Virus record (IMG/VR): IMGVR_UViG_3300021425_003554
Length of the DNA: 64,000 nucleotides
Strand: one strand, 5' to 3'
From: a virus
Lineage: Duplodnaviria; Caudoviricetes
Each line of letters opens with the position of its first letter. Within the stretch, counting starts at the first letter, position 1. Shown in pieces: positions 4,501 through 64,000 of the stretch. The position numbers were made by a program, and so were the translations under genes. The notes beneath the pieces are model-generated. The model was given only the letters and a program-made list of their open reading frames with translations, did not search any database and was not told where the DNA came from.

Positions 4501-4765
4501 GCTGATATTTATAGGGTGATTGTTTGACCCGGCTCCGCTGTGGACGAAACCGGGCGGATCCCACAGTCCCTTTGGTACGGTCAACAGGACTCGAACCTGT
4601 AGTGCCCTCTCGAGCTCCAGCGTCAAAACACCGGATGTGTCTGGATACTCCTGATTTCACCATGACCGCACACGCATTATAACATGGCCCCGATGGTAAT
4701 GCTAGACCTTTTTTTTCTGCTGTGCAAATTTTTTTGATCTGAGGAACACCGGGTGTAGGCAGTTT

Positions 4766-51292: not shown

Positions 51293-51656
51293 ACATTTAG
51301 ATATATCAATCTACATAGACACTTTAAAAAAAACAAACGAGAATCCTGTTGAAATAAAGTTTAATAACAACAAAGTCACAAATTATACAATGGAATACAA
51401 TAACAAAAGAATCGTGGTCAAATTTAGTGTCCAAGAACCCACATCGATCACACAATCTATTTTAGAAGTAAAAAATGCTTATAAACAACATTATATTAAC
51501 ATCGCCGACATGACTATAAATGATTTTAGTTGTTTATCTTATTTTTCTTTGTTAACTAATGATAAAAATGAAATTATTATGAAACCCGACAACGAAATTA
51601 TCCTAAGGTGGAACAGTCCTTATTCTTACTATTTTCTCAAAAATTTTGATCTTTAA
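51285..51656 (+). CDS. hypothetical protein
   Basis: coupled ORF. Confidence 0.55.
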   Translation: MNKHLDISIYIDTLKKTNENPVEIKFNNNKVTNYTMEYNNKRIVVKFSVQEPTSITQSILEVKNAYKQHYINIADMTINDFSCLSYFSLLTNDKNEIIMKPDNEIILRWNSPYSYYFLKNFDL

Positions 51657-52674
51657 TGTAGATCAAATCACTATAAATTGCTTTTTCAAAATTAATACTT
51701 TTTAATACTTTCATTCCTTCTTGATAAATGTCAAAAACTTCTTTATCATTTTCTTTGGCATATTTTTCCATAGATGCACATTCATAATTAACATGAGTTG
51801 TGGATAAAAAGGCATTTTGTCTTTTATAAGCAATATCATCGTTATCCGGCATAACAAGTCCTAGAGATTTTTTAAACTCTTTGTGATCAAACACAGGATT
51901 GTGCCCTTGAAATTTTTGTACTTTTTCATTATCTAAATCTGCGTGTTGTTCATAAAAAGCAATGGCTTTGTGTGTTTGCCAATTGAGAATTTCAAAATCG
52001 TCCCAAAATAGATTAAAAAATTGAGGTAGATAGTATGTGCAATATTCTTGTGTATCAAAATAAATTAAATACCATTTATTATCGTCAAGGTAAAGACGAG
52101 GATGATCGTTTCCAGTTATATGAATTGTTTTGTCGTTGATTAATCTTTCTTTCTCTATTGGGTGAGTATCTAAAATATTATATCTCATATGTTTGCTAAA
52201 TCTATCTGTGATAAAAGGTTGCCTAACCCAATCTTCTTTGTGTTTTAAATAAAAACTTTTGGCAGTCTCGTATCCCACATCCAATACTGTTATTTTACTA
52301 TTGAATTTTTTATTGTAATTTTGTATATCCTTCATTACTAATCTTTTTTCTTCTTTATACAATGAATAAGGATCATATAATTTGTCATAAAAAACTAGTT
52401 CATCAAATTCAATATTATGACGATACGCACAATCTAATATTGTCTTGCTGTCTGTTCCTCCACTGTACCACAAGATCAACCTAATATCTTGTTGTTTTAA
52501 TTTTAGAAGTCTGTTTTTTATTAATTCATCTAAAGTGATGTCTGGACAATTTTTAAAATCATAATTCGTCAATGCATCTGTTTTATAATAAAATTTACAA
52601 TTAGGATCGGACTCCACAGCGATCACTTTGCTTAGATGTTTTTTTCCATTAGCCGTCCAGTAAACATCAATCAT
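51637..52674 (-). CDS. PP-loop/AsnB-C-like protein
   Basis: LWYSGGTDS, ITGNDHP. Confidence 0.7.
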   Translation of the reverse strand: MIDVYWTANGKKHLSKVIAVESDPNCKFYYKTDALTNYDFKNCPDITLDELIKNRLLKLKQQDIRLILWYSGGTDSKTILDCAYRHNIEFDELVFYDKLYDPYSLYKEEKRLVMKDIQNYNKKFNSKITVLDVGYETAKSFYLKHKEDWVRQPFITDRFSKHMRYNILDTHPIEKERLINDKTIHITGNDHPRLYLDDNKWYLIYFDTQEYCTYYLPQFFNLFWDDFEILNWQTHKAIAFYEQHADLDNEKVQKFQGHNPVFDHKEFKKSLGLVMPDNDDIAYKRQNAFLSTTHVNYECASMEKYAKENDKEVFDIYQEGMKVLKSINFEKAIYSDLIYIKDQNF

Positions 52675-52988
52675 GTAAAATCCTTTAATTTTTTATCTAA
52701 TAATTTTTGCACGATATTTTTGTTTAACTTTTTATTATGATACAGAACAACAAACCTACGATGCTGTCTGCTTAAATTCAAAGAACAATAAGATTGTCCA
52801 AATTTTGTTGTGTGCATAGAGTGTTTTTTCCAATTGGATACTATTTTATTATCAACTTCGTACACCTGAGCCTGCTCCCATTTATCTATAAAATACACAG
52901 TTCTATAGTTCATACCCTTATAGTTGATTGATGGTATTTCAAACTCCCCCGGGGCCTGATGTACTAGCTCTAATATTATTTCGCTCAT
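52671..52988 (-). CDS. hypothetical protein
   Basis: 4-nt overlaps at both ends. Confidence 0.6.
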   Translation of the reverse strand: MSEIILELVHQAPGEFEIPSINYKGMNYRTVYFIDKWEQAQVYEVDNKIVSNWKKHSMHTTKFGQSYCSLNLSRQHRRFVVLYHNKKLNKNIVQKLLDKKLKDFT

Positions 52989-53599
52989 AACTTTATAATT
53001 TTTTTCTTTTTAAATTTTTCAAACTTCTTCGTTGGGATACCTGTTATTCTCAATATCCAACGAGGTTCATTTCCGCAGTTTCCTGCTCCGTGATATACTT
53101 CCTTGCTATTATAATAAAACATATCGCCTTGTTTCCAACTATTAATAATTTTGTCTTCGATGTGCATGAACTGTCCAGGCTTTCGATCATTCAACATTAA
53201 TAACATTCTATGGTACTCTGGATTTTTAAACTCATTTGCTTTGACATATAATTCTTTTCTCTCTGCTATATCGTAATCGGGCATATGATCTATGTGTCTT
53301 AGTTGTATTTCGCCTTGTTCATATTTCATTATGATCATTTGAGTATTTTTCCAACCTAGCAATTTTCTTAGTTTCTCTAATGTTGGCATTTTAACAGGAT
53401 CTATATAACCTCGAGAATTTCTTTTTATACCAATCTTTTTGTAATCGATATTTGCTTGTCCCATTTTAAGTGACTTTTTATAATCTTTCTTTTCAAGCAC
53501 TTGTTCCAAATATTCTCTGCCAAAGTTTGCCTTATAGTATGATAATTCTTTATCAAAATTGCCACCCACTACTTGAAATTTGTGTACTTTCTTATTCAT
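52985..53599 (-). CDS. 2OG-Fe(II) oxygenase (Asp/Asn-hydroxylase-like cupin)
   Basis: RHID (HxD), WKQGD, YHGAGN..RWILRITG. Confidence 0.75.
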   Translation of the reverse strand: MNKKVHKFQVVGGNFDKELSYYKANFGREYLEQVLEKKDYKKSLKMGQANIDYKKIGIKRNSRGYIDPVKMPTLEKLRKLLGWKNTQMIIMKYEQGEIQLRHIDHMPDYDIAERKELYVKANEFKNPEYHRMLLMLNDRKPGQFMHIEDKIINSWKQGDMFYYNSKEVYHGAGNCGNEPRWILRITGIPTKKFEKFKKKKIIKL

Positions 53600-53600
53600 T

Positions 53601-54329
53601 TTAATTTTTCTCCTTTAGAATTTTATCAAATAACTCGTTTACAACAATACCTATTAATATAATAATGAAAAAGACAGCATACATGGTAGATGTTTCCATT
53701 ATGTCTTTGGCATCTGTCATGTAAGTGCCTATACCCCAATGACTGCCTATAGTGCCAAACACAACTTCTATACCTATCAATATCCTCCAACTCAAATTCC
53801 AACACGTTTTGAAATTAGCGACCAATAAAGGTTTTAAACTAGGAAGATAAACTTTTATTATACTTTCTATTACTCCCAATCTTAGATTGCCACAGTGTTT
53901 AGACCATTTTGTCAGAGATTCCTCCAAGGAAACGATCATGTTTAATCCCACCATCCAAACGGTAGCAAAGATCATTAATAAAATTATTGTTAATTCATTC
54001 ACTCCAAACACGAGCATGAAGACCGGCAACCATGCAAAAGTTGGTGTGGGTTGTAAAGATGCACAAAGGCTCTTGAAGATAAATCTAAATTGCTTATTTA
54101 AAACAGATATTATAATCACAACAAACAATAGACTCAATATCAAAAACCAAGTTTTAATTAGGAATAAAATACTGTCTGTTAAGGCACCTATAAATCTTAT
54201 ATCAGTTAATAATTGAGGATATTCGACTATCAATATATCGATGCCTGGTAAAATATAATTGTTACCTATAGACATTGATAGTAATTGCCAAACTATTAAA
54301 ATAATTACAAAACTTTTTATACTATTCAT
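53601..54329 (-). CDS. NitT/TauT-family ABC permease
   Basis: QPTPTFAWLP, SWRILIGIEVV, GIG, multiple TMs; ATGA overlap with the ATPase. Confidence 0.9.
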   Translation of the reverse strand: MNSIKSFVIILIVWQLLSMSIGNNYILPGIDILIVEYPQLLTDIRFIGALTDSILFLIKTWFLILSLLFVVIIISVLNKQFRFIFKSLCASLQPTPTFAWLPVFMLVFGVNELTIILLMIFATVWMVGLNMIVSLEESLTKWSKHCGNLRLGVIESIIKVYLPSLKPLLVANFKTCWNLSWRILIGIEVVFGTIGSHWGIGTYMTDAKDIMETSTMYAVFFIIILIGIVVNELFDKILKEKN

Positions 54330-54877
54330 TTTACTTTGATAACTTTTCCTAATTGTTTGGCTTCTGTTTGATTGTGTGTAACCCATAAAACTTTTTTGTT
54401 TGTGCTTTTAACTAATTTTTTAAATTCTCTCACTATTTCTTTTCCTGTGGCACCATCAACACCGCTCATGGGTTCGTCACATAACAATATTGATCTATCA
54501 CTATATAGAGCTCTCATCAGAGTAAACCGTTGTTTCTGACCAACTGAACACTCGTTGGGCATTTTATCCAAATGTTTTTCTAATTTTAATTTTTTAGCAA
54601 TCTTGTTCCAATTTATATCTGTAACCAGTCTTAAATTTTCCCTCACGGTCATCCAAGGAAATAGTTGTTCTGTATCTTGAAATACCCTGAAAATATTTGA
54701 ATTGTCTATGATCTTTCCTGTGTATTCACAACCTCCGGAGATACATTCGAGAAGACTAGTTTTTCCAATACCCGATGCTCCCATCAATGTGTTTACTTCG
54801 CCAGGTCGTAGATGTAGAGTTATAGGTCTAAATAACTCTACATTGTTTCTGAGAGGAGCAACAGAAATCAATTGCAT
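54326..54877 (-). CDS. NitT/TauT-family ABC ATPase (short)
   Basis: GASGIGKT, VFQD..LFPW, SVGQKQR, LLCDEP, VTHN. Confidence 0.9.
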   Translation of the reverse strand: MQLISVAPLRNNVELFRPITLHLRPGEVNTLMGASGIGKTSLLECISGGCEYTGKIIDNSNIFRVFQDTEQLFPWMTVRENLRLVTDINWNKIAKKLKLEKHLDKMPNECSVGQKQRFTLMRALYSDRSILLCDEPMSGVDGATGKEIVREFKKLVKSTNKKVLWVTHNQTEAKQLGKVIKVK

Positions 54878-55812
54878 TATTTCAACGCCTCTGCACGATA
54901 GATCATTTTTGATATGTCGCCTTTGTTATCTTTGAGATATTCTATTTCGTATAAAAAATTATTAAAATACTCTGATCCCCTTAGATCGGAATGGAATATT
55001 GCTTGATTTTTTATGTGTCCCTTTTGTAGATACTCCGCAGTTGTGTCCATTTTGTCTTTCTGAATAAATTTTTCTAAAATTGTTATAGGATCCTTGTTAT
55101 AATCACGTATAACTTCTACCGCTGTTGTTATGAAAGCATAAGCCAAATCGGGATTCTGATCAACCCAATCTTTCCTTGTCCAATAGGCATTGTATGATCC
55201 TGCTATACCTTTTTCAACATCACTTGTGGCAACTGTAACAAAACCCAGTTCGTCCTGTATCTTGTTCTGTAATGGTGCTCCGGTCATCACGCATTTCACG
55301 TCAGAAGATCCGGCCTGCAATATTTGCCATATTTGAGGTCTTTTCATGGTAATAAAATTTTCATCAAGTGCATAAGGATCTCCAAAGTGTTCTTTTGCCA
55401 ACCACCTGATTGTGTGATGTTCCAAGGTGTTTCTACCAGAAGTGACAATTTTTGTAGTTTTAACATCTTCCATTGTTTTGATGTCAGGTGTACATTGTAA
55501 GAAATACTTGTAATGCCCAATGGCAGATAGCAACAAACTTTGCTCAGGCATCTTATCATTTAAAACAATGAACGATGTGATAGACCCCACGTTGACATCT
55601 ATCTGTTTATTCATCAGTAAGGAATTGCCTTTGATGGATGATTTTGTTGGTACTGTGTTTACTGTTATGCCTCGTGCTTCTAATCTCTCGATTATTTCAT
55701 ATCCTATATGCTGATGAGCACCAAAGGTGGGTTGAATGGCCATTGTAAATTCCTTGGCCGATATTGTTGTTGTTATGATAGATATCAACAACGTCAGAAT
55801 CATTTTCTTCAT
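54877..55812 (-). CDS. NitT/TauT/NMT1-like ABC substrate-binding protein
   Basis: signal peptide; periplasmic-binding-protein size; heads the operon. Confidence 0.75.
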   Translation of the reverse strand: MKKMILTLLISIITTTISAKEFTMAIQPTFGAHQHIGYEIIERLEARGITVNTVPTKSSIKGNSLLMNKQIDVNVGSITSFIVLNDKMPEQSLLLSAIGHYKYFLQCTPDIKTMEDVKTTKIVTSGRNTLEHHTIRWLAKEHFGDPYALDENFITMKRPQIWQILQAGSSDVKCVMTGAPLQNKIQDELGFVTVATSDVEKGIAGSYNAYWTRKDWVDQNPDLAYAFITTAVEVIRDYNKDPITILEKFIQKDKMDTTAEYLQKGHIKNQAIFHSDLRGSEYFNNFLYEIEYLKDNKGDISKMIYRAEALK

Positions 55813-55977: not shown

Positions 55978-56196
55978 CTATCTACCTAGTTTTTTTGATC
56001 TACCCAACGGTAATTTTTGTAGTTTGTAGAACTCCTCACCACTTTTGGTAGTCCATTCCACTTCCACAAATTTTGCTTTGGAACCGGACTGATAAGATTT
56101 CACTGCTCGTCTGTAACCCAGTGCTTCAACTTCTTTGACCTGTTCTTCAGCGGGTGCTGTTTTATCTGTAAAAATAAATTTTCTGTTTTTTGGCAT
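55978..56196 (-). CDS. small basic hypothetical protein, leaderless
   Basis: TTGACA-17-TAATAT at 56203-56231 ends 6 nt before the ATG. Confidence 0.7.
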   Translation of the reverse strand: MPKNRKFIFTDKTAPAEEQVKEVEALGYRRAVKSYQSGSKAKFVEVEWTTKSGEEFYKLQKLPLGRSKKLGR

Positions 56197-56270
56197 AAAC
56201 TTATATTAACATCCAAAAAAACAAGTGTCAACCTATTGACAAAATACCATTAATGTGTTTAAATACTAGC

Positions 56271-56576
56271 ATGGACGTTGATGGGTAGACAATACCTGGA
56301 CAAGACGTCGGGGCAGTACCGACCACCTCCACCACTCACTTGAAACACACACAATAGATTTGTGCTTTGAGGGGGTGAACTAGGATCGATTGACAGTTAA
56401 AACTATCTGGAGTTCATCGTGATTATTCCGACGTAATCGGGTTATTTTATAAATGCTAATAAAAAAGCATTGGGATTTGCTGACCTAACAGTTGGTCAAT
56501 CTCAACTAAGATTAGCGGCTTAATAGCCAACAATCTTGCGGGTTTGGGGACACCTGGGAACAGAAGTTCCCCCAAC
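56271..56576 (+). ncRNA. ssrA: circularly permuted (two-piece) tmRNA
   Basis: T-arm plus CACCTCC-ACCA at 56305-56334 precedes 5' GGGGGTG at 56371; 7-bp acceptor stem with G3.U70; tag ORF 56455-56523 ends LAA*; outer ends approximate. Confidence 0.95.
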
Positions 56577-56658
56577 ATAATACGATCGTATAACTTATAA
56601 TGTCGTATATTCATTTGTCATCCTAACCTTAAATATTTCATATTAAACAGGGGTGTGA

Positions 56659-56949
56659 ATGAAAAAACGTAGACTACCAAAGCACAAACAGGTTTGGATG
56701 AAAATAAGGAAAAAGGCTCCCAAAGTTCCCGACATAACCTGCCCGGTCATTGATGATGTGATTGACAAGATAACCAAAATCAAAGAACTGGAAAAAATAA
56801 TATCTCCCGCTCAATTAAAAACATTGAAAAAGAAAATGGAAAGACTACGAACAATGAACGAGCAATTGAGAGAAAGCGGACAGTACTGGCATGACGAATG
56901 TCAAAAATTAGTGGACGACGTTTTCAAACACGGAAAATATAAATTTTAA
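56659..56949 (+). CDS. basic coiled-coil hypothetical protein
   Basis: plausible ORF after the tmRNA. Confidence 0.65.
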   Translation: MKKRRLPKHKQVWMKIRKKAPKVPDITCPVIDDVIDKITKIKELEKIISPAQLKTLKKKMERLRTMNEQLRESGQYWHDECQKLVDDVFKHGKYKF

Positions 56950-58817: not shown

Positions 58818-58941
58818 TAAATTAACAAGACATATTAAAGTAAATGTCTATAAACTTGTTCCGTCGGATCTCGCTTATATTCGGCGGAACACACGACTCC
58901 ACACCCTTTGGGTGTAATTGAGTCAACATACAGGAGATGAT

Positions 58942-60048
58942 ATGGAAAACAAAGTGAAAACTCTCAATCAAGTGGTTGAGGAATTCTACAAAGACGGCGA
59001 AGATGAAGTAGCCAATTTCAAAACAAGGTTAGAAACAGCCAGAGATAGGCTGAAAGAATTACAAAAAGATCCTGAAATGATATTACCGCAAGGTATTTCA
59101 CAAGTGGAGATCAATGACGATCTATGTTTCAATTACTCTGTACAACGAGACTTGAGACCTTCACACGTGGTTCGTATATGTGAAAAATTTGATCCCCGAG
59201 TGGTAAGACCCGCATCAGCAGTCAAAAGAGACGGAAAATACTTTTTGTTTGATGGACAACACACGTCTGTCGCATTATCGGTATTGGGTTTCAAGGCAGT
59301 GCCCATGACCTATGTTGAGACATCACATCAATCTTTTGATGCCATCGCATTTGAGATATTGAATGACACAGGTATATTGAGGGCAGGCACAGAAGAGATA
59401 CACAGGGGTCTATTACACAGATGGCACAACGATGTCCATTCTGAAAACGATAGGAATAATCCTAGGGTAAAAAATGCCTACACTGTTGATACCCTATTCA
59501 AAAAATGTGCTATAGATTTAGAACCCAAGCGAGTGAGAAAGAGCCCGGGCAAGTGTGGTCCAAACAAACACTATTTCTCACATTTCGATTATGCATACAA
59601 AGGTTTAGAAATGACCGGCGATGCTGATGTTCTTGAAAAGATATTGTTGGGAATCAAACAATATTACGGAGATGAGGACGGAGGAGAAATCAATCAAGGT
59701 ATCTACATAGGACTTGTAAAAATGTACGCATTAGCAAAAGAAGACGGTGCAACTAAATTTCTACCCAAAGATTGGATAGATAAAATTCTATCGGCACTGA
59801 TCGATATATGTGGAAGGAATGCACAAGGAATACATTCTGCCTCTAAAAAGCAATGGCAACATTGCCGAGGCACATCATGGGACGCACCAGTGGCAATGAG
59901 TACTCTTATGAGAGAAGCATATCTTTCACACGCATCAGAAGATGATCAGTTCAATCCACCACACGAACCTAAGGTGTCCATGGGTTTATTGAAAAACGAC
60001 ATCTGTGCAGAGTTTGTTCCTTATTGTAAAATGAAAAACAATGTTTGA
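58942..60048 (+). CDS. ParB/Srx-fold protein (DGQHT; DUF6551-like)
   Basis: QRDL..FDP..LFDGQHT; AGGAG SD before MENKVK. Confidence 0.75.
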   Translation: MENKVKTLNQVVEEFYKDGEDEVANFKTRLETARDRLKELQKDPEMILPQGISQVEINDDLCFNYSVQRDLRPSHVVRICEKFDPRVVRPASAVKRDGKYFLFDGQHTSVALSVLGFKAVPMTYVETSHQSFDAIAFEILNDTGILRAGTEEIHRGLLHRWHNDVHSENDRNNPRVKNAYTVDTLFKKCAIDLEPKRVRKSPGKCGPNKHYFSHFDYAYKGLEMTGDADVLEKILLGIKQYYGDEDGGEINQGIYIGLVKMYALAKEDGATKFLPKDWIDKILSALIDICGRNAQGIHSASKKQWQHCRGTSWDAPVAMSTLMREAYLSHASEDDQFNPPHEPKVSMGLLKNDICAEFVPYCKMKNNV

Positions 60049-60583
60049 ACTAGATAGATATATGCGATTAGATCGCGAATTGGTAGGTAAGTTACAATTT
60101 AAATCTGCCAACAAAGTATCGCTTGAGGCAGATGTAGAAATTCTAAATAGATTCAAAAACGATTTATTAAGTGAAAATGTCAACAGAGAAGTCAAAGGCA
60201 AGTACTTTTATTTTTTACAGAGATACTTGAGGGACACACAAAAGGCACGATGTCCTGGACAGTCCCATTATGTGGCGGAAGGTGCCAATGAGGGCAAAGC
60301 ACATCTCGAGCATCCAATACCACAAAATAGGATACTACAAGCATACCTGGAAGGTCATATATCTGAGATTGAAGCAATCCATATGCCTTTGTGCCTTATA
60401 TCAGATGCTGACAAACACATCCTGGAAGGAGAATGGCAATACAATGCCACATGGCAGTATCCATTTCGAAGATATAAAATGGCAGGATTTACCAAAACAA
60501 TTAAAAATTTAAGAGGAGAACCTATTGATTTAGACTTGTGGTCTATTGAAAATCATTTTACAATGTTAGGAGTAATAAAATGA
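60041..60583 (+). CDS. hypothetical protein with EHxxP (HNH-like) motif
   Basis: HLEHPIP..PLCLIS..D..L; overlap-coupled on both sides. Confidence 0.5.
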   Translation: MFELDRYMRLDRELVGKLQFKSANKVSLEADVEILNRFKNDLLSENVNREVKGKYFYFLQRYLRDTQKARCPGQSHYVAEGANEGKAHLEHPIPQNRILQAYLEGHISEIEAIHMPLCLISDADKHILEGEWQYNATWQYPFRRYKMAGFTKTIKNLRGEPIDLDLWSIENHFTMLGVIK

Positions 60584-61866
60584 AACCCTGGAAAATCATA
60601 CAAGAACTGGAAGCGGACAATTCGAGACTGAAGAAAGAAGCCATCATAAGGCGTGAGTCAGACGCGGAGAACATCAGGTTCTTCAACGGCGTTGGTGCGG
60701 CCTTGGATGGATTCAGGACTTTTGGTGTACAGAAGGTGCCCGTATCAAAGAAGGATGGCACAGGAATCACACAGACCGAATTCGATGATGTCTTGAGAAG
60801 ATTGGAAGACAGAACTCTCACAGGCAATGAAATGCGAGATGTGATCCAAGACCTTTGTGATAGATCAAACATGGAAGAATGGAACGACTGGTATCGTAGG
60901 ATCTTGATAAAAGATCTAAGATGTGGGGTCACACACAAGACAATCAATAAGCATTCTACGATGAAGGTTCCTGTGTTCGAGTGTATGTTGGCAGACGACA
61001 GCAAGAAGCACGAAAAGAAGATGACAGGTGAAGTGTATGTTGAACCCAAACTGGATGGAGTCAGAGTGATAACAATATGCGACGTGGACAAGGACGAGGT
61101 TAAGATGTTCTCAAGAAACGGCAAGGAATTAGTCAACTTTCCAAAGATACTTCAACAATTTGACGAGATGCTGGACCAGATGTCCGAGAGCATGGTGTTT
61201 GACGGCGAGGTCATGAGTGACGACTTCCAGACCCTGATGAGGGAGATACACAGGAAGGGTGGTGCCAAGACCGATGACGCGGTGCTTAACCTGTTTGATT
61301 GCCTGCCACTTGAACACTTCAAGGAGGGTGGATCAAATAACACTTTGGGTCAAAGAAAGGATTGGTTGGACGGATATGATTATGGTCCAAACATATCCAA
61401 AGTAGAATATGTAAAAATAGATTTAGATGACGACGATGGACAGAAGCAGTTCGCGGATTATAATAGATTATGTATAGACAAGGGATTTGAAGGTATAATG
61501 GTCAAACCCATCACAGGGATCTATGAGTGTAAGAGATCCAGCCTCTGGTTAAAAGTAAAACCTTTTATAGAAGTTTCTTTAACTGTCAAAGATGTTGAAG
61601 AAGGCACGGGTAGAAATATTGGTAAACTGGGTGCTCTCATTGTTGAAGGTACCGACGATGGTAAATTTATAAAAACTAATGTGGGATCTGGATTGACAGA
61701 CCAGGATCGTGAAACATATTGGCAACACAAAGATAAATTATTAGGACAGGTTGTTGAAATTAGAGCAGATGCAATAACCCAAAATCAGGACACGACTAGG
61801 GAATATAGTCTACGTTTTCCTAGATTTTTAAGATTTAGAGGATTTGAAATAGGAGAAAAAATGTAA
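60580..61866 (+). CDS. lig: ATP-dependent DNA ligase
   Basis: EPKLDGVR, FDGEV, EGIMVK, WLKVK, SLRFPRF. Confidence 0.97.
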   Translation: MKPWKIIQELEADNSRLKKEAIIRRESDAENIRFFNGVGAALDGFRTFGVQKVPVSKKDGTGITQTEFDDVLRRLEDRTLTGNEMRDVIQDLCDRSNMEEWNDWYRRILIKDLRCGVTHKTINKHSTMKVPVFECMLADDSKKHEKKMTGEVYVEPKLDGVRVITICDVDKDEVKMFSRNGKELVNFPKILQQFDEMLDQMSESMVFDGEVMSDDFQTLMREIHRKGGAKTDDAVLNLFDCLPLEHFKEGGSNNTLGQRKDWLDGYDYGPNISKVEYVKIDLDDDDGQKQFADYNRLCIDKGFEGIMVKPITGIYECKRSSLWLKVKPFIEVSLTVKDVEEGTGRNIGKLGALIVEGTDDGKFIKTNVGSGLTDQDRETYWQHKDKLLGQVVEIRADAITQNQDTTREYSLRFPRFLRFRGFEIGEKM

Positions 61867-62888
61867 TGAAAAATATTGGAATTATAGGTTCTGGTAAAAT
61901 TGGATCAACAATATATGCTTATCTAAAAACAACAGATCATAATATTAGTATAGCGGACAAAATACAAAAAAATGAAGTACAAAAGATAGATGTATTCAAC
62001 AAAGACGACCTGGAATCCTTTGTGTCTAAACAAGACATATTGGTCTCAGGAGCACCTTATGATGCTAATCCTTTGATAGCAGATGCCTGTAATAAATTCA
62101 ATGTGGCATATTTTGATCTCACAGAAGACACAGCAGTGACAGATCACATCAAGACTTTCAAATCAGACACATTCATGATGCCGCAGTGTGGTTTTGCTCC
62201 GGGAGCCATTAATATTATTGCAAGTAATCTTATCAAGCAATTTGAAAGAGTGGACAAAGTTAATATGAGAGGTGGAGCATTGCCTAAGTATCCAAACAAT
62301 GCCATGGCCTATTATCTCACATGGAGTACGTCCGGATTGATCAACGAATACGTAAATGATTGTGATGTTATTAGAAATAACAAACACATCAAAACACTAC
62401 CATTGGACGGTTTAGAAACTTTATATGTTGATGGTGATAGATATGAGGCTTTTAACACATCTGGTGGAGCGGCCTCTATGTGTGAAACATTTTCTGACAC
62501 AGTCAAAACACTTGACTACAAAACTATAAGATATCCAGGACATCATGCCAGCATGAAATTCTTGTTGGACGATTTGAATTTAAAACACAACAAAGAAAAA
62601 TTTATTGATCTATTTGATCAGGAAGTGCCTTACACTACCGCTGATGTCATTGTGATGTTCGTTAGTGTGGTCGGCATCAAGAATGGTATGCTACAAGAAG
62701 TAACGTATAGTAAAAAAATTTACGGAGATGAAAACTTCAGTGCCATACAGAGAACCACTGCATCCGGGGCCTGTGCGGTAGTCCTGGCCTATGCCGAAGG
62801 CAAATTAAAAGGCAAAGGATTTCAACGTCAAGAAAATATACCGTTTGATGTATTCACTGGTAATAAATTTGGAGAACTTTATGGATAA
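61866..62888 (+). CDS. lysine 6-dehydrogenase / saccharopine dehydrogenase family
   Basis: GSGKIG, YFDLTED, CGFAPG, TWSTSGLINEY, EAFNTSGG, KTIRYPGH. Confidence 0.9.
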   Translation: MKNIGIIGSGKIGSTIYAYLKTTDHNISIADKIQKNEVQKIDVFNKDDLESFVSKQDILVSGAPYDANPLIADACNKFNVAYFDLTEDTAVTDHIKTFKSDTFMMPQCGFAPGAINIIASNLIKQFERVDKVNMRGGALPKYPNNAMAYYLTWSTSGLINEYVNDCDVIRNNKHIKTLPLDGLETLYVDGDRYEAFNTSGGAASMCETFSDTVKTLDYKTIRYPGHHASMKFLLDDLNLKHNKEKFIDLFDQEVPYTTADVIVMFVSVVGIKNGMLQEVTYSKKIYGDENFSAIQRTTASGACAVVLAYAEGKLKGKGFQRQENIPFDVFTGNKFGELYG

Positions 62889-64000
62889 ACAAAAATATAA
62901 CGTGATTGTCAACAGGGCCATGGACGCCCAGATGTTATGGAAAAATGTTCCTGCTCCGAAAAGAGGAGAACTAATCAGAATATTTGGCAACAAATTAAGA
63001 GAAAATTTACAAGAGTTAGGAGAACTGGTCACAAAGGATTCCAAAAAAATTATTGCGGAAGGAATAGGAGAGGTACAAGAAGCGATAGATATGTGTGATT
63101 TCGGGGTGGGATTGTCAAGACAACTTTACGGATTGACTATGCCATCGGAAAGACAAGATCACAAGTTAATGGAAGTATGGCATCCACTCGGAGTTGTTGG
63201 AGTCATATCTGCTTTTAATTTTCCTTGTGCTGTATGGTCATGGAATCATATACTTTCTATAGTGTGTGGAAATTCTGTTGTATGGAAACCATCACCCCTC
63301 AGTATGAACATCACTCTAAAATGTAAAGAGTTATGGGATGAGTCAATTGTTGAATTTTTAAAAAACGTGACAGTGAAACATACACAAGGTGATAGATTTC
63401 ATTTACAAGATCTATTGGGCATAGTCGAAGGCGGAAAAGAAGCCGCCGAATGGATAGCAGACGATCCTAGAATAAAATTAGTAAGTGCCACAGGTTCCAC
63501 AGAGATGGGCAAAGCATTGGCTCCTAGAGTTTCGGCAAGATTAGGAAAATCTTTATTAGAATTGGGTGGTAACAATGCAATGATAGTTTCACAACACGCA
63601 AACTTGAATCTTGCGATTAGAGCCATAGTATTCAGTGCTGTGGGAACTTGCGGACAAAGATGTACAACATTGAGAAGATTGATTGTTAACGAAAACATTT
63701 ACGATACACTACTTGAAAAAATTAAATCTGCATACAGCAGTTTGACAATAGGTGATCCAATGGATCCTAAAAATTTAGTGGGACCTTTGATCAATCAACA
63801 ATCTGTTGACAGAATGCAAGAAGTTTTAAAAAAATGTCGAGAAAGAGGACATATTGTACACGGTGGAGAAGTTATCGAAGGTTGCTATGTAAAACCTGCC
63901 ATAGTGGAAGTCAAAGAGCAGGACGAGTTGGTACACAACGAAACTTTTGCTCCTATACTGTACATTTTGAAGTATATCACTCTAGATAATGCTATCAGAA
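62881..64000 (+). CDS. ALDH7-type aminoadipate-semialdehyde dehydrogenase (runs off the window; absent from the ORF track)
   Basis: translated by hand: PAPKRGE, EGIGEVQE, MPSER, PLGVVGVISAFNFP, LELGGNN, GQRCTT. Confidence 0.92.
   Translation, partial: MDKQKYNVIVNRAMDAQMLWKNVPAPKRGELIRIFGNKLRENLQELGELVTKDSKKIIAEGIGEVQEAIDMCDFGVGLSRQLYGLTMPSERQDHKLMEVWHPLGVVGVISAFNFPCAVWSWNHILSIVCGNSVVWKPSPLSMNITLKCKELWDESIVEFLKNVTVKHTQGDRFHLQDLLGIVEGGKEAAEWIADDPRIKLVSATGSTEMGKALAPRVSARLGKSLLELGGNNAMIVSQHANLNLAIRAIVFSAVGTCGQRCTTLRRLIVNENIYDTLLEKIKSAYSSLTIGDPMDPKNLVGPLINQQSVDRMQEVLKKCRERGHIVHGGEVIEGCYVKPAIVEVKEQDELVHNETFAPILYILKYITLDNAIR

Follow-up and report, generated by a model that had tools for sequence, protein, structure and literature searches.

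Is the element at positions 56272-56574 of a long viral DNA record a working gene for transfer-messenger RNA (tmRNA; ssrA), and, if so, does it belong to a phage or to a bacterium? The question is raised by 64,000 nucleotides of the IMG/VR virus record IMGVR_UViG_3300021425_003554 (Duplodnaviria; Caudoviricetes), a stretch that is called the window below and was analysed at its full length. An earlier reading of the letters alone, referred to here as the original prediction, had claimed at this place a phage-encoded, circularly permuted tmRNA in two pieces. The analysis described below indicates a complete phage-borne, circularly permuted tmRNA gene of the alpha type that is preceded by its own promoter, and a marine T4-like phage of jumbo size probably uses it as its working ssrA gene, laid out in the two-piece manner of alpha-proteobacteria.

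What identifies the element as a tmRNA gene? Both tools that the original prediction had named for a check, ARAGORN and the Infernal alpha_tmRNA model, call a permuted tmRNA. ARAGORN reports a single one at 56239-56614 (plus strand), whose tag ANKKALGFADLTVGQSQLRLAA runs into two stop codons, while cmscan with Rfam 15 aligns alpha_tmRNA (RF01849) to 56216-56574 at 112.1 bits (gathering score 50, E = 9e-30, model positions 1-355) and tmRNA_permuted (RF04321) to 56272-56488 at 93.4 bits (gathering score 47, E = 9e-17, model positions 1-213). The two Rfam matches are far above chance, and as full-length matches above the gathering scores they bear out the permuted, alphaproteobacterial-type architecture that had been proposed. 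The parts of the gene, with the source of each assignment in brackets, are the following:

56236-56264, plus strand: sigma-70-type promoter, with the −35 hexamer TTGACA (56236-56241), a 17-nucleotide spacer, TGn (56256-56258) and the −10 hexamer TTAAAT (56259-56264).
56272-56574, plus strand: permuted tmRNA gene (ARAGORN and the two Rfam models).
56272-56334, plus strand: acceptor piece (cmscan alignments and pair counts in relatives).
56272-56276, 56285-56288 and 56297-56303, plus strand: 5′ strands of the long P2-type helices (cmscan alignments).
56307-56323, plus strand: T arm with the alpha-type loop GGCAGUA (cmscan alignments).
56324-56330, plus strand: 3′ strand of the acceptor stem (cmscan alignment and sequence).
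56331 and 56332-56334, plus strand: discriminator A and encoded CCA (sequence).
56335-56370, plus strand: intervening segment of 36 nucleotides, predicted to be removed, with a hairpin and an (AC)n run (sequence and minimum free energy fold).
56371-56574, plus strand: coding piece (ARAGORN and cmscan).
56371-56377, plus strand: 5′ strand of the acceptor stem, GGGGGUG (pairs with 56324-56330).
56390-56416, plus strand: 3′ strands of the P2 helices (cmscan; compensatory changes in relatives).
56428-56440, plus strand: pre-tag hairpin (compensatory variants in relatives).
56455-56526, plus strand: tag frame, with the GCU resume codon at 56455, 22 codons to 56520 and the stops TAA TAG at 56521-56526 (ARAGORN).
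56546-56550 with 56568-56572, plus strand: terminal helix, whose loop carries the conserved ACCUGG.AACAGAA.

The two inner ends of the pieces lie exactly where the original prediction had put them. The acceptor piece closes with ...CCACCUCCACCA (last base 56334) and the coding piece opens with GGGGGUGAACUAGGAUCGA (first base 56371), i.e., the CCA-ending piece stands upstream of the piece that starts with G1, with a spacer between them, which is the permuted order. Together the pieces form a domain like that of alanine transfer RNA (tRNA), composed of a 7-base-pair acceptor stem (56371-56377 with 56324-56330) that includes G3.U70, a discriminator A, the encoded CCA and a T arm of 5 base pairs with a 7-nucleotide loop. 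The tag, claimed to be intact, does run through 22 codons to two stop codons, and its frame resumes on an alanine codon, is closed in frame by a stop and ends in a hydrophobic Ala-Ala (...RLAA). The hairpin at 56428-56440 occupies the place of PK1 before the resume codon and occurs in the variants CCGA/UCGG, UUGG/CCAG and UGGC/GCCG (one stem was considered). A hairpin is likewise predicted in the 36-nucleotide intervening segment, as had been claimed, by a minimum free energy fold of the single sequence; that fold (z = −1.7) mis-pairs the acceptor stem with the spacer and is uninformative in comparison with the alignment.

Is this fold held in place by selection, or could the gene be a decaying relic that was captured from an alphaproteobacterial host and is now unused? 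Thirty-three distinct variants were aligned, and the tRNA-like domain, the three long-range helices between the pieces and the terminal helix were mapped on the tool-made alignments. In these sequences 90.8% of the cells are paired, compared with 36-50% when the partners are slid; changes on both sides of a pair amount to 223 cells against 67 in shuffles, and the covariation score of 0.572 (0.186 when shuffled) was reached by none of 500 shuffles. A smaller alignment of 8 sequences had 92% of cells pairing (32-48% when slid) and both-side changes in 15 of its 32 pairs. The acceptor stem and the T arm are 100% paired in the 33 relatives, with both-side changes in 6 of 12 pairs. The alanyl identity pair G3.U70, which had been noticed in the stem from the letters, is kept in all 33, and the G.U at 3:70 is retained in the compensatory acceptor stems GGGGUGG/CCACUCC and GGGGCUG/CAGCUCC. 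The terminal helix reads GGGG/CCCC in the window and CCCC/GGGG in relatives. Helices, G3.U70, promoter and tag are, on this comparative evidence, under purifying selection. The relic reading may appeal to the lack of direct evidence for expression or processing, and to the spacer of the window, which differs from that of the clade and has no hairpin pairing with the CCA. It is opposed by the compensatory changes that keep the helices and by the conservation of promoter, G3.U70 and tag at only ~70% overall identity, and it is regarded as extremely improbable because neutral decay would not give such conservation.

Two kinds of T arm occur in the clade: some members have the alpha-type loop GGCAGUA, others a canonical loop of the UUCGAAU/UGCAAUU type (alignment A4, columns 99-115; window 56307-56323). 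These variants occur despite the tag, promoter and 3′ domain that are common across the clade, which suggests that tRNA-like modules may have been exchanged among phage tmRNAs.

The spacer between the pieces varies in length and sequence, and the window's version is unrelated to those of the other clade members. In the nearest record, the IMG/VR viral contig G001, whose tmRNA locus is 99% identical to that of the window, the sole difference within the gene is a 2-nucleotide AC indel in the spacer. Most relatives (L103, L113, L082 and others; alignment A2, columns 102-126) carry in their spacer UUGGUGG, a perfect pair to the CCACCAA 3′ end of the acceptor piece, and the UUGGUGG:CCACCAA hairpin would mask the CCA in the precursor. 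The spacer of the window (56335-56370) is without this hairpin, and its (AC)n run is one unit off that of G001.

The gene is provided with a signal for its own transcription. Both sequences that the original prediction had placed ahead of it, TTGACA at 56236-56241 and TAAATA at 56260-56265, are present, and transcription is predicted to start near 56271. All 33 variants have TTGACA (TTGAC being invariant), a 17-nucleotide spacer and either TTAAAT, often after TG, or a perfect TATAAT. The consensus promoter scanner missed this promoter, since its rule demands A at position 2 of the second hexamer. Because the tmRNA promoter is close to the consensus of host sigma-70, we infer early expression. 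The predicted start near 56271 coincides with the point at which pairing in the acceptor piece begins, so that trimming of the 5′ end of this piece would be unneeded.

The most distinctive part of the gene is its tag. When IMG/VR was scanned with a back-translated pattern in which the residues at positions 1, 2 and 5-12 were fixed, so that only positions 3, 4 and 13-22 are unbiased, 40 contigs with 23 tag variants were found. Their form is AN-[KTR]-[KR]-ALGFAD-[LF]-T-[VL]-[GS]-x-[SPT]-x-[LM]-RLAA; the length is 22 residues in all variants but one (25 residues), the RLAA end is invariant, and the ALGFAD core is kept across the 23 variants. Positions 1, 2, 6, 7, 9, 10, 12, 13 and 22 show synonymous variation only, and a double stop follows the tag in 20 of 26. 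Among other viral tags of the alpha type, 63 of 72 start with ANDN, ANE or ANS and end with ALAA. The pattern was also run over 185,579 bacterial and archaeal species (one genome each), where a single contig matched, NZHE01000011.1, and a full-text literature search for the core motif found no paper. What appears to be new here is thus a tag subfamily, AN-K/R-K/R-ALGFADLTVG-x-S-x-LRLAA, that is found on no clearly cellular contig. An origin of the long tag by a 1-nucleotide insertion before an ancestral stop (GCUG-CUUAA vs GCUGACCUAAC) was considered, and the alignment is too loose at such divergence to support it.

Whose gene is it? Strong PHROG matches identify in the window a phage-type class I ribonucleotide reductase (NrdAB), an ATP-dependent DNA ligase and a protein like a clamp loader; the window also encodes a cell-wall hydrolase, a protein resembling a tail fibre, and numerous auxiliary metabolic genes. 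A conserved 406-residue protein (phrog_455) has its best tblastn matches, at 38-41% identity, in Kyanoviridae, namely Synechococcus phages, Methylophilales phage Melnitz and Pelagibacter phage HTVC008M. By these gene contents the window is a contig of a marine T4-like (Kyanoviridae-like) phage. The piece from which the window was taken extends at least 152 kb before the window start and ~10 kb past its end; the genome is therefore larger than 200 kb, that of a jumbo phage, with which the CheckV completeness of 4-39% for related contigs of 7-93 kb agrees. Seawater, marine and salt-marsh metagenomes are the sources of the sequencing runs that contain the locus. No match to the locus was found by blastn in 50,697 GenBank phage records, and the gene may thus lack a close relative among isolates. 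The search for the Gp23 capsid family PF07068, which matched neither on the 40 clade contigs nor in the controls, is uninformative.

A scan of IMG/VR with an alpha-type tRNA-like pattern matched at least 120 contigs with the alpha-type permuted form, and the matches listed include a set of genes, ~70-74% identical to that of the window, in which the unusual tag recurs. The near-identical and the divergent copies are all on IMG/VR viral contigs, and those divergent ones that were checked keep the open reading frames (ORFs) on either side. These neighbours are as follows:

55978-56196, minus strand: ORF of 72 amino acids, the divergent neighbour, 54-64% identical beside the tmRNA in L118, L103, L082, L129 and L014.
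56231-56203, minus strand: promoter of the 72-residue ORF, with TTGACA at 56231-56226, a 17-nucleotide spacer, TG and TAATAT ending at 56203 (promoter scan).
56659-56949, plus strand: ORF for a basic protein of 96 amino acids, the downstream neighbour, 49-61% identical after the tmRNA in L129, L130, L082, L113 and L014.

The tmRNA gene has evidently been inherited within the phage lineage together with these two small flanking genes. The promoter of the 72-residue ORF stands back to back with that of the tmRNA, and the 96-residue ORF is possibly co-transcribed with the tmRNA because no terminator was found between the two. Neither neighbour has an informative PHROGs or Pfam match, and the 96-residue protein shows no similarity to the gp33 coactivator of Melnitz.

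The locus might instead be host DNA, i.e., a host tmRNA in a chimeric assembly, a prophage flank or a partial copy at an attachment (att) site, and it had been said from the outset that a host-derived segment would undo the claim. Integration into tmRNA genes is common (PMC11915505), the label 'provirus' is attached to 4 of the 40 related IMG/VR records, and one related contig sits in a bin named after a Rickettsiales bacterium. Against this reading, the gene is complete, with both pieces and the tag, and is not a 3′ fragment; no integrase was found among the ORFs scanned (most of those of at least 120 amino acids and the small tmRNA neighbours); the same flanking phage ORFs, with 50-64% identity of their proteins, and the same promoter recur on contigs assembled independently from many metagenomes; and the content of G and C in the tmRNA is continuous with that of its flanks. 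The bin itself, 'Rickettsiales bacterium MED657' (genome G007), has three permuted tmRNAs (contigs L127/L130 = NZHE01000011.1, L129 and L128). One of them is canonical (tag ANDNEMALAA; alpha model score 185 bits), and the other two are of the phage type and lie on contigs other than that of the canonical one. NZHE01000011.1 ('MAG: Rickettsiales bacterium MED657'), the single match in the bacterial and archaeal genomes, equals the viral record UViG_2823573081_000014, both being 46,675 bp long and carrying the same tmRNA tag. It is thus likely that phage contigs were binned with the bacterium. Since the flanks are kept, the bin has its own tmRNA, and neither a close bacterial copy nor an integrase was found (the former in 401 sampled Alphaproteobacteria, the latter among the ORFs scanned), the host-derived reading is dismissed as scarcely credible, and with it the partial att-site copy, for which a full gene was found instead of a fragment.

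Can the host be named? The binning of MED657 is a hint at most, and a weak one. BLAST of the tmRNA against the 401 Alphaproteobacteria gave short conserved segments only, mostly in genomes of 1.1-1.4 Mb, and these matches are too weak for naming a host. A public bin that is named after a Rickettsiales bacterium and has at least two contigs of this phage lineage, each with an extra tmRNA, could itself mislead tmRNA censuses and host assignments.

How would a phage tmRNA of this kind act? For the processing, the two-piece tmRNA of Caulobacter, as reportedly described by Keiler and colleagues in 2000 (cited in PMC9004378), serves as the model, and the later steps follow what is established for trans-translation at large. 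Host RNA polymerase with sigma-70 would transcribe a precursor of ~300 nucleotides early in infection, from near 56271. Host RNase P would cut 5′ of G56371, and 3′ trimming would expose the CCA at 56334, giving an acceptor RNA of 63/64 nucleotides that is base-paired to a coding RNA of ~204 nucleotides. The host alanyl-tRNA synthetase would charge this RNA via G3.U70, and host SmpB and EF-Tu would carry it to ribosomes that have stalled on broken mRNAs. Such mRNAs should abound as soon as RNA is cut, whether by the phage or by the defences of the host. Translation would then resume at GCU 56455 and add the 22-residue tag, which ends in LAA, a degron of the ClpXP type. The likely benefit for the phage would be freed ribosomes and recycled amino acids, and ribosome rescue during infection, which the original prediction had also put forward, is a plausible role for the gene.

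Several observations weigh against a functional phage ssrA gene and have to be set beside the evidence above. Contigs of three salt-marsh metatranscriptome runs (Logan) match 56305-56869, 56305-56648 and 56305-56548 with 0-3 differences, which places the locus, spacer included, in these libraries and proves neither transcription nor processing: the contigs may derive from carried-over DNA, and, as they cross the spacer, they represent the precursor form at most. A scan found no terminator-like site after 56574, and read-through into the 96-residue ORF is therefore possible. Part of the nucleotide conservation in the final codons of the tag may be due to RNA structure (a predicted helix) and not to selection on the peptide. 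Finally, the search for a phage smpB that the original prediction had called for came back empty, in the window (tblastn) as well as on 40 related contigs, which are fragments of a genome larger than 200 kb and do not establish a phage-wide absence; the same search found one SmpB gene in the MED657 bin, which served as its control. The function of the gene would therefore depend on a host SmpB that accepts the RNA.

As to the same libraries, the contig breaks at 56304/56334 were tried as RNA ends and rejected, since they coincide with a 31-mer common to many tmRNAs and are an effect of assembly. Depth differences between the tmRNA and its flanks (~2-3 fold) come as one figure per contig and cannot rank expression, and uncovered stretches prove nothing. 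At 56446-56495 of the window, short contigs with the tag region of a close relative (...GMSEMRLAA) have ~10 times the depth of window-exact contigs in runs X15, X16 and X18; the tmRNA of a sister phage may be abundant in those salt-marsh metatranscriptomes.

Could the RNA act without tagging anything? As a decoy or competitor it would bind host SmpB, alanyl-tRNA synthetase or ribosomes and so block host trans-translation. For want of an SmpB found in the phage, that of the host would have to be competed for, and inhibition of host tmRNA by a tmRNA-like RNA of a phage has been reported for mycobacteriophage DS6A (PMC11915505). The DS6A form is without any coding sequence, whereas the gene in the window has an intact tag frame of constant length, with RLAA, stops and synonymous variation, all needless for a pure decoy; this reading is judged very unlikely, and a tagging ssrA gene is preferred.

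One may also ask what the unusual tag is for, if the ssrA gene is functional. The ANDN motif is the region of canonical tags to which the SspB adaptor belongs, and in the phage family it is replaced by AN-K/R-K/R, a basic in place of an acidic or neutral start. It is conceivable, albeit unlikely, that the tag opens a private tag-and-degrade channel, routing proteins to a phage ClpXP or adaptor or away from the host adaptor, so that the phage would pick truncated proteins for destruction. Such a channel would fit the conservation of the core across 23 variants, whereas most other viral tags keep the canonical start and end, the restriction of the family to contigs that are not clearly cellular, and the Clp genes of the lineage. 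A full-length ClpX equivalog (487-504 bits, cut-off 371) is found on 14 of the 40 clade contigs (for example at 63102-64307 in L082/G004), which include nearly all of those longer than ~44 kb; on the two contigs measured, its distance to the tmRNA is 17-22 kb. ClpP is encoded on the near-identical G001 at 1130-1720, ~2 kb before the window start, with 288 bits (subfamily cut-off 249), and this protein is below the cut-off of the head-maturation model. Because the lineage carries ClpX and ClpP, the degradation step may be partly phage-supplied. On the other side, the Clp genes are 17-58 kb from the tmRNA and do not form one operon with it, and the LAA end is an ordinary signal for host ClpX. 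Moreover, ClpX and ClpP of other jumbo phages have usually been assigned to replication control or assembly, with no tmRNA link reported (PMC6102473, PMC7824862), and the link to the tmRNA is therefore put forward as a hypothesis and not as a finding. That the marine jumbo lineage has a quality-control and proteolysis branch of its own, in which a phage-only tmRNA, with a long basic tag diverged from all cellular tags sampled, works with phage ClpX and ClpP, seems distinctly improbable; if it were true, the tag core would be a private signal for a phage unfoldase or adaptor that bypasses the SspB route of the host, and the phage, as it takes over the cell, would control what becomes of proteins made from broken mRNAs.

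Some further features of the window lie around the tmRNA cassette. Upstream of it, at 51637-55812 (minus strand), there is an operon with an ABC-importer ATPase and an NMT1-like binding protein, together with PP-loop-like enzymes; downstream, at 61866-63999 (plus strand), a saccharopine-dehydrogenase-like protein is followed by an aldehyde dehydrogenase. At 58918-60583 (plus strand) a ParB/DUF6551-like ORF of 376 amino acids overlaps an ORF of 180 amino acids just upstream of the DNA ligase, and the former is conserved near the tmRNA in L129 and L130 (49-53% identity). The segment 2001-8000 has a G and C content of 0.49-0.55, compared with 0.30-0.43 elsewhere in the window, and holds a D-glutamate cyclase-like ORF (2076-2849) and a tRNA-like gene, which ARAGORN calls as a 97-nucleotide tRNA-Gly(tcc) at 4573-4669 (minus strand); the Rfam tRNA model stays below its gathering score throughout the window.

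How does the gene compare with known systems? The original prediction knew of no characterised permuted phage tmRNA, and this stands insofar as none has been characterised at the bench, while two-piece tmRNAs of phages have been published (PMC9004378). The premise of novelty is outdated, since such genes were described in Melnitz, in pelagimyophages and in 53 isolate genomes. The two-piece ssrA of Melnitz, and likewise that of pelagimyophages, was reported by Buchholz et al. (2022; PMC9004378). In their census of isolate phages 53 of the 133 unique tmRNAs had the two-piece form, and 50 of these 53 came from marine or aquatic samples; permuted tmRNAs were found in 17 of 47 Melnitz-like contigs. 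The tmRNA database holds 79 phage sequences (PMC11915505). What was already known is therefore that phages have two-piece tmRNAs, and what appears distinct here is the phage-only tag subfamily.

The closest known systems are the genes of Melnitz (MZ577097.1), whose GenBank record annotates the gene as SsrA, and HTVC008M (KC465899.1), which were confirmed with the same two Rfam models at 107-113 bits (RF01849) and 84-91 bits (RF04321), compared with 112 and 93 bits in the window. Like the phage of the window, these are marine T4-like (Kyanoviridae-type) myophages with a permuted alpha-type tmRNA of similar Rfam scores, an early-type promoter ahead of the gene and no phage SmpB reported. The differences are several. 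In Melnitz and HTVC008M the ssrA gene lies between PhoH/nuclease and the gp33 coactivator, whereas the slot in the window is between the 72- and 96-residue ORFs, beside the ABC-importer operon. Their tags are short and canonical (ANDNYVPVDYALAA and ANFNEYALAA), whereas that of the window has 22 residues and the basic start AN-K-K. In Melnitz the 3′ end carries a glutamine riboswitch (52.8 bits), while no riboswitch matches the window at the gathering score. Beyond the tRNA-like core the genes are barely alignable, and the phage of the window, unlike the other two, belongs to a jumbo lineage.

With the bacterial tmRNAs of RF01849, including that of Caulobacter, the gene shares the order of the pieces, the T loop GGCNGUA, G3.U70, the encoded CCA, the UAAAU-GCN context of the resume codon, the conserved ACCUGGCAACAGAA loop close to the 3′ end and a tag that finishes in Ala-Ala. 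It differs from them in being carried by a phage with no linked smpB, in a tag about twice as long, in AN-K/R-K/R in place of ANDN, and in that some members of the phage clade have a canonical T loop of the UUCGAAU type. One-piece phage tmRNAs (e.g., those of mycobacteriophages) and the DS6A RNA are, as here, phage-borne members of the family that need the SmpB of the host (PMC11915505). These have the standard gene order, and DS6A makes a tag-less inhibitor, whereas the gene of the window is permuted and has a conserved tag (PMC11915505). Phage tmRNAs show that some phages invest in freeing host ribosomes during infection. The gene described here, with 40 related contigs, clear covariation, a near-consensus promoter of the early type and a distinctive tag, is a well-defined and strongly conserved candidate for a direct test.

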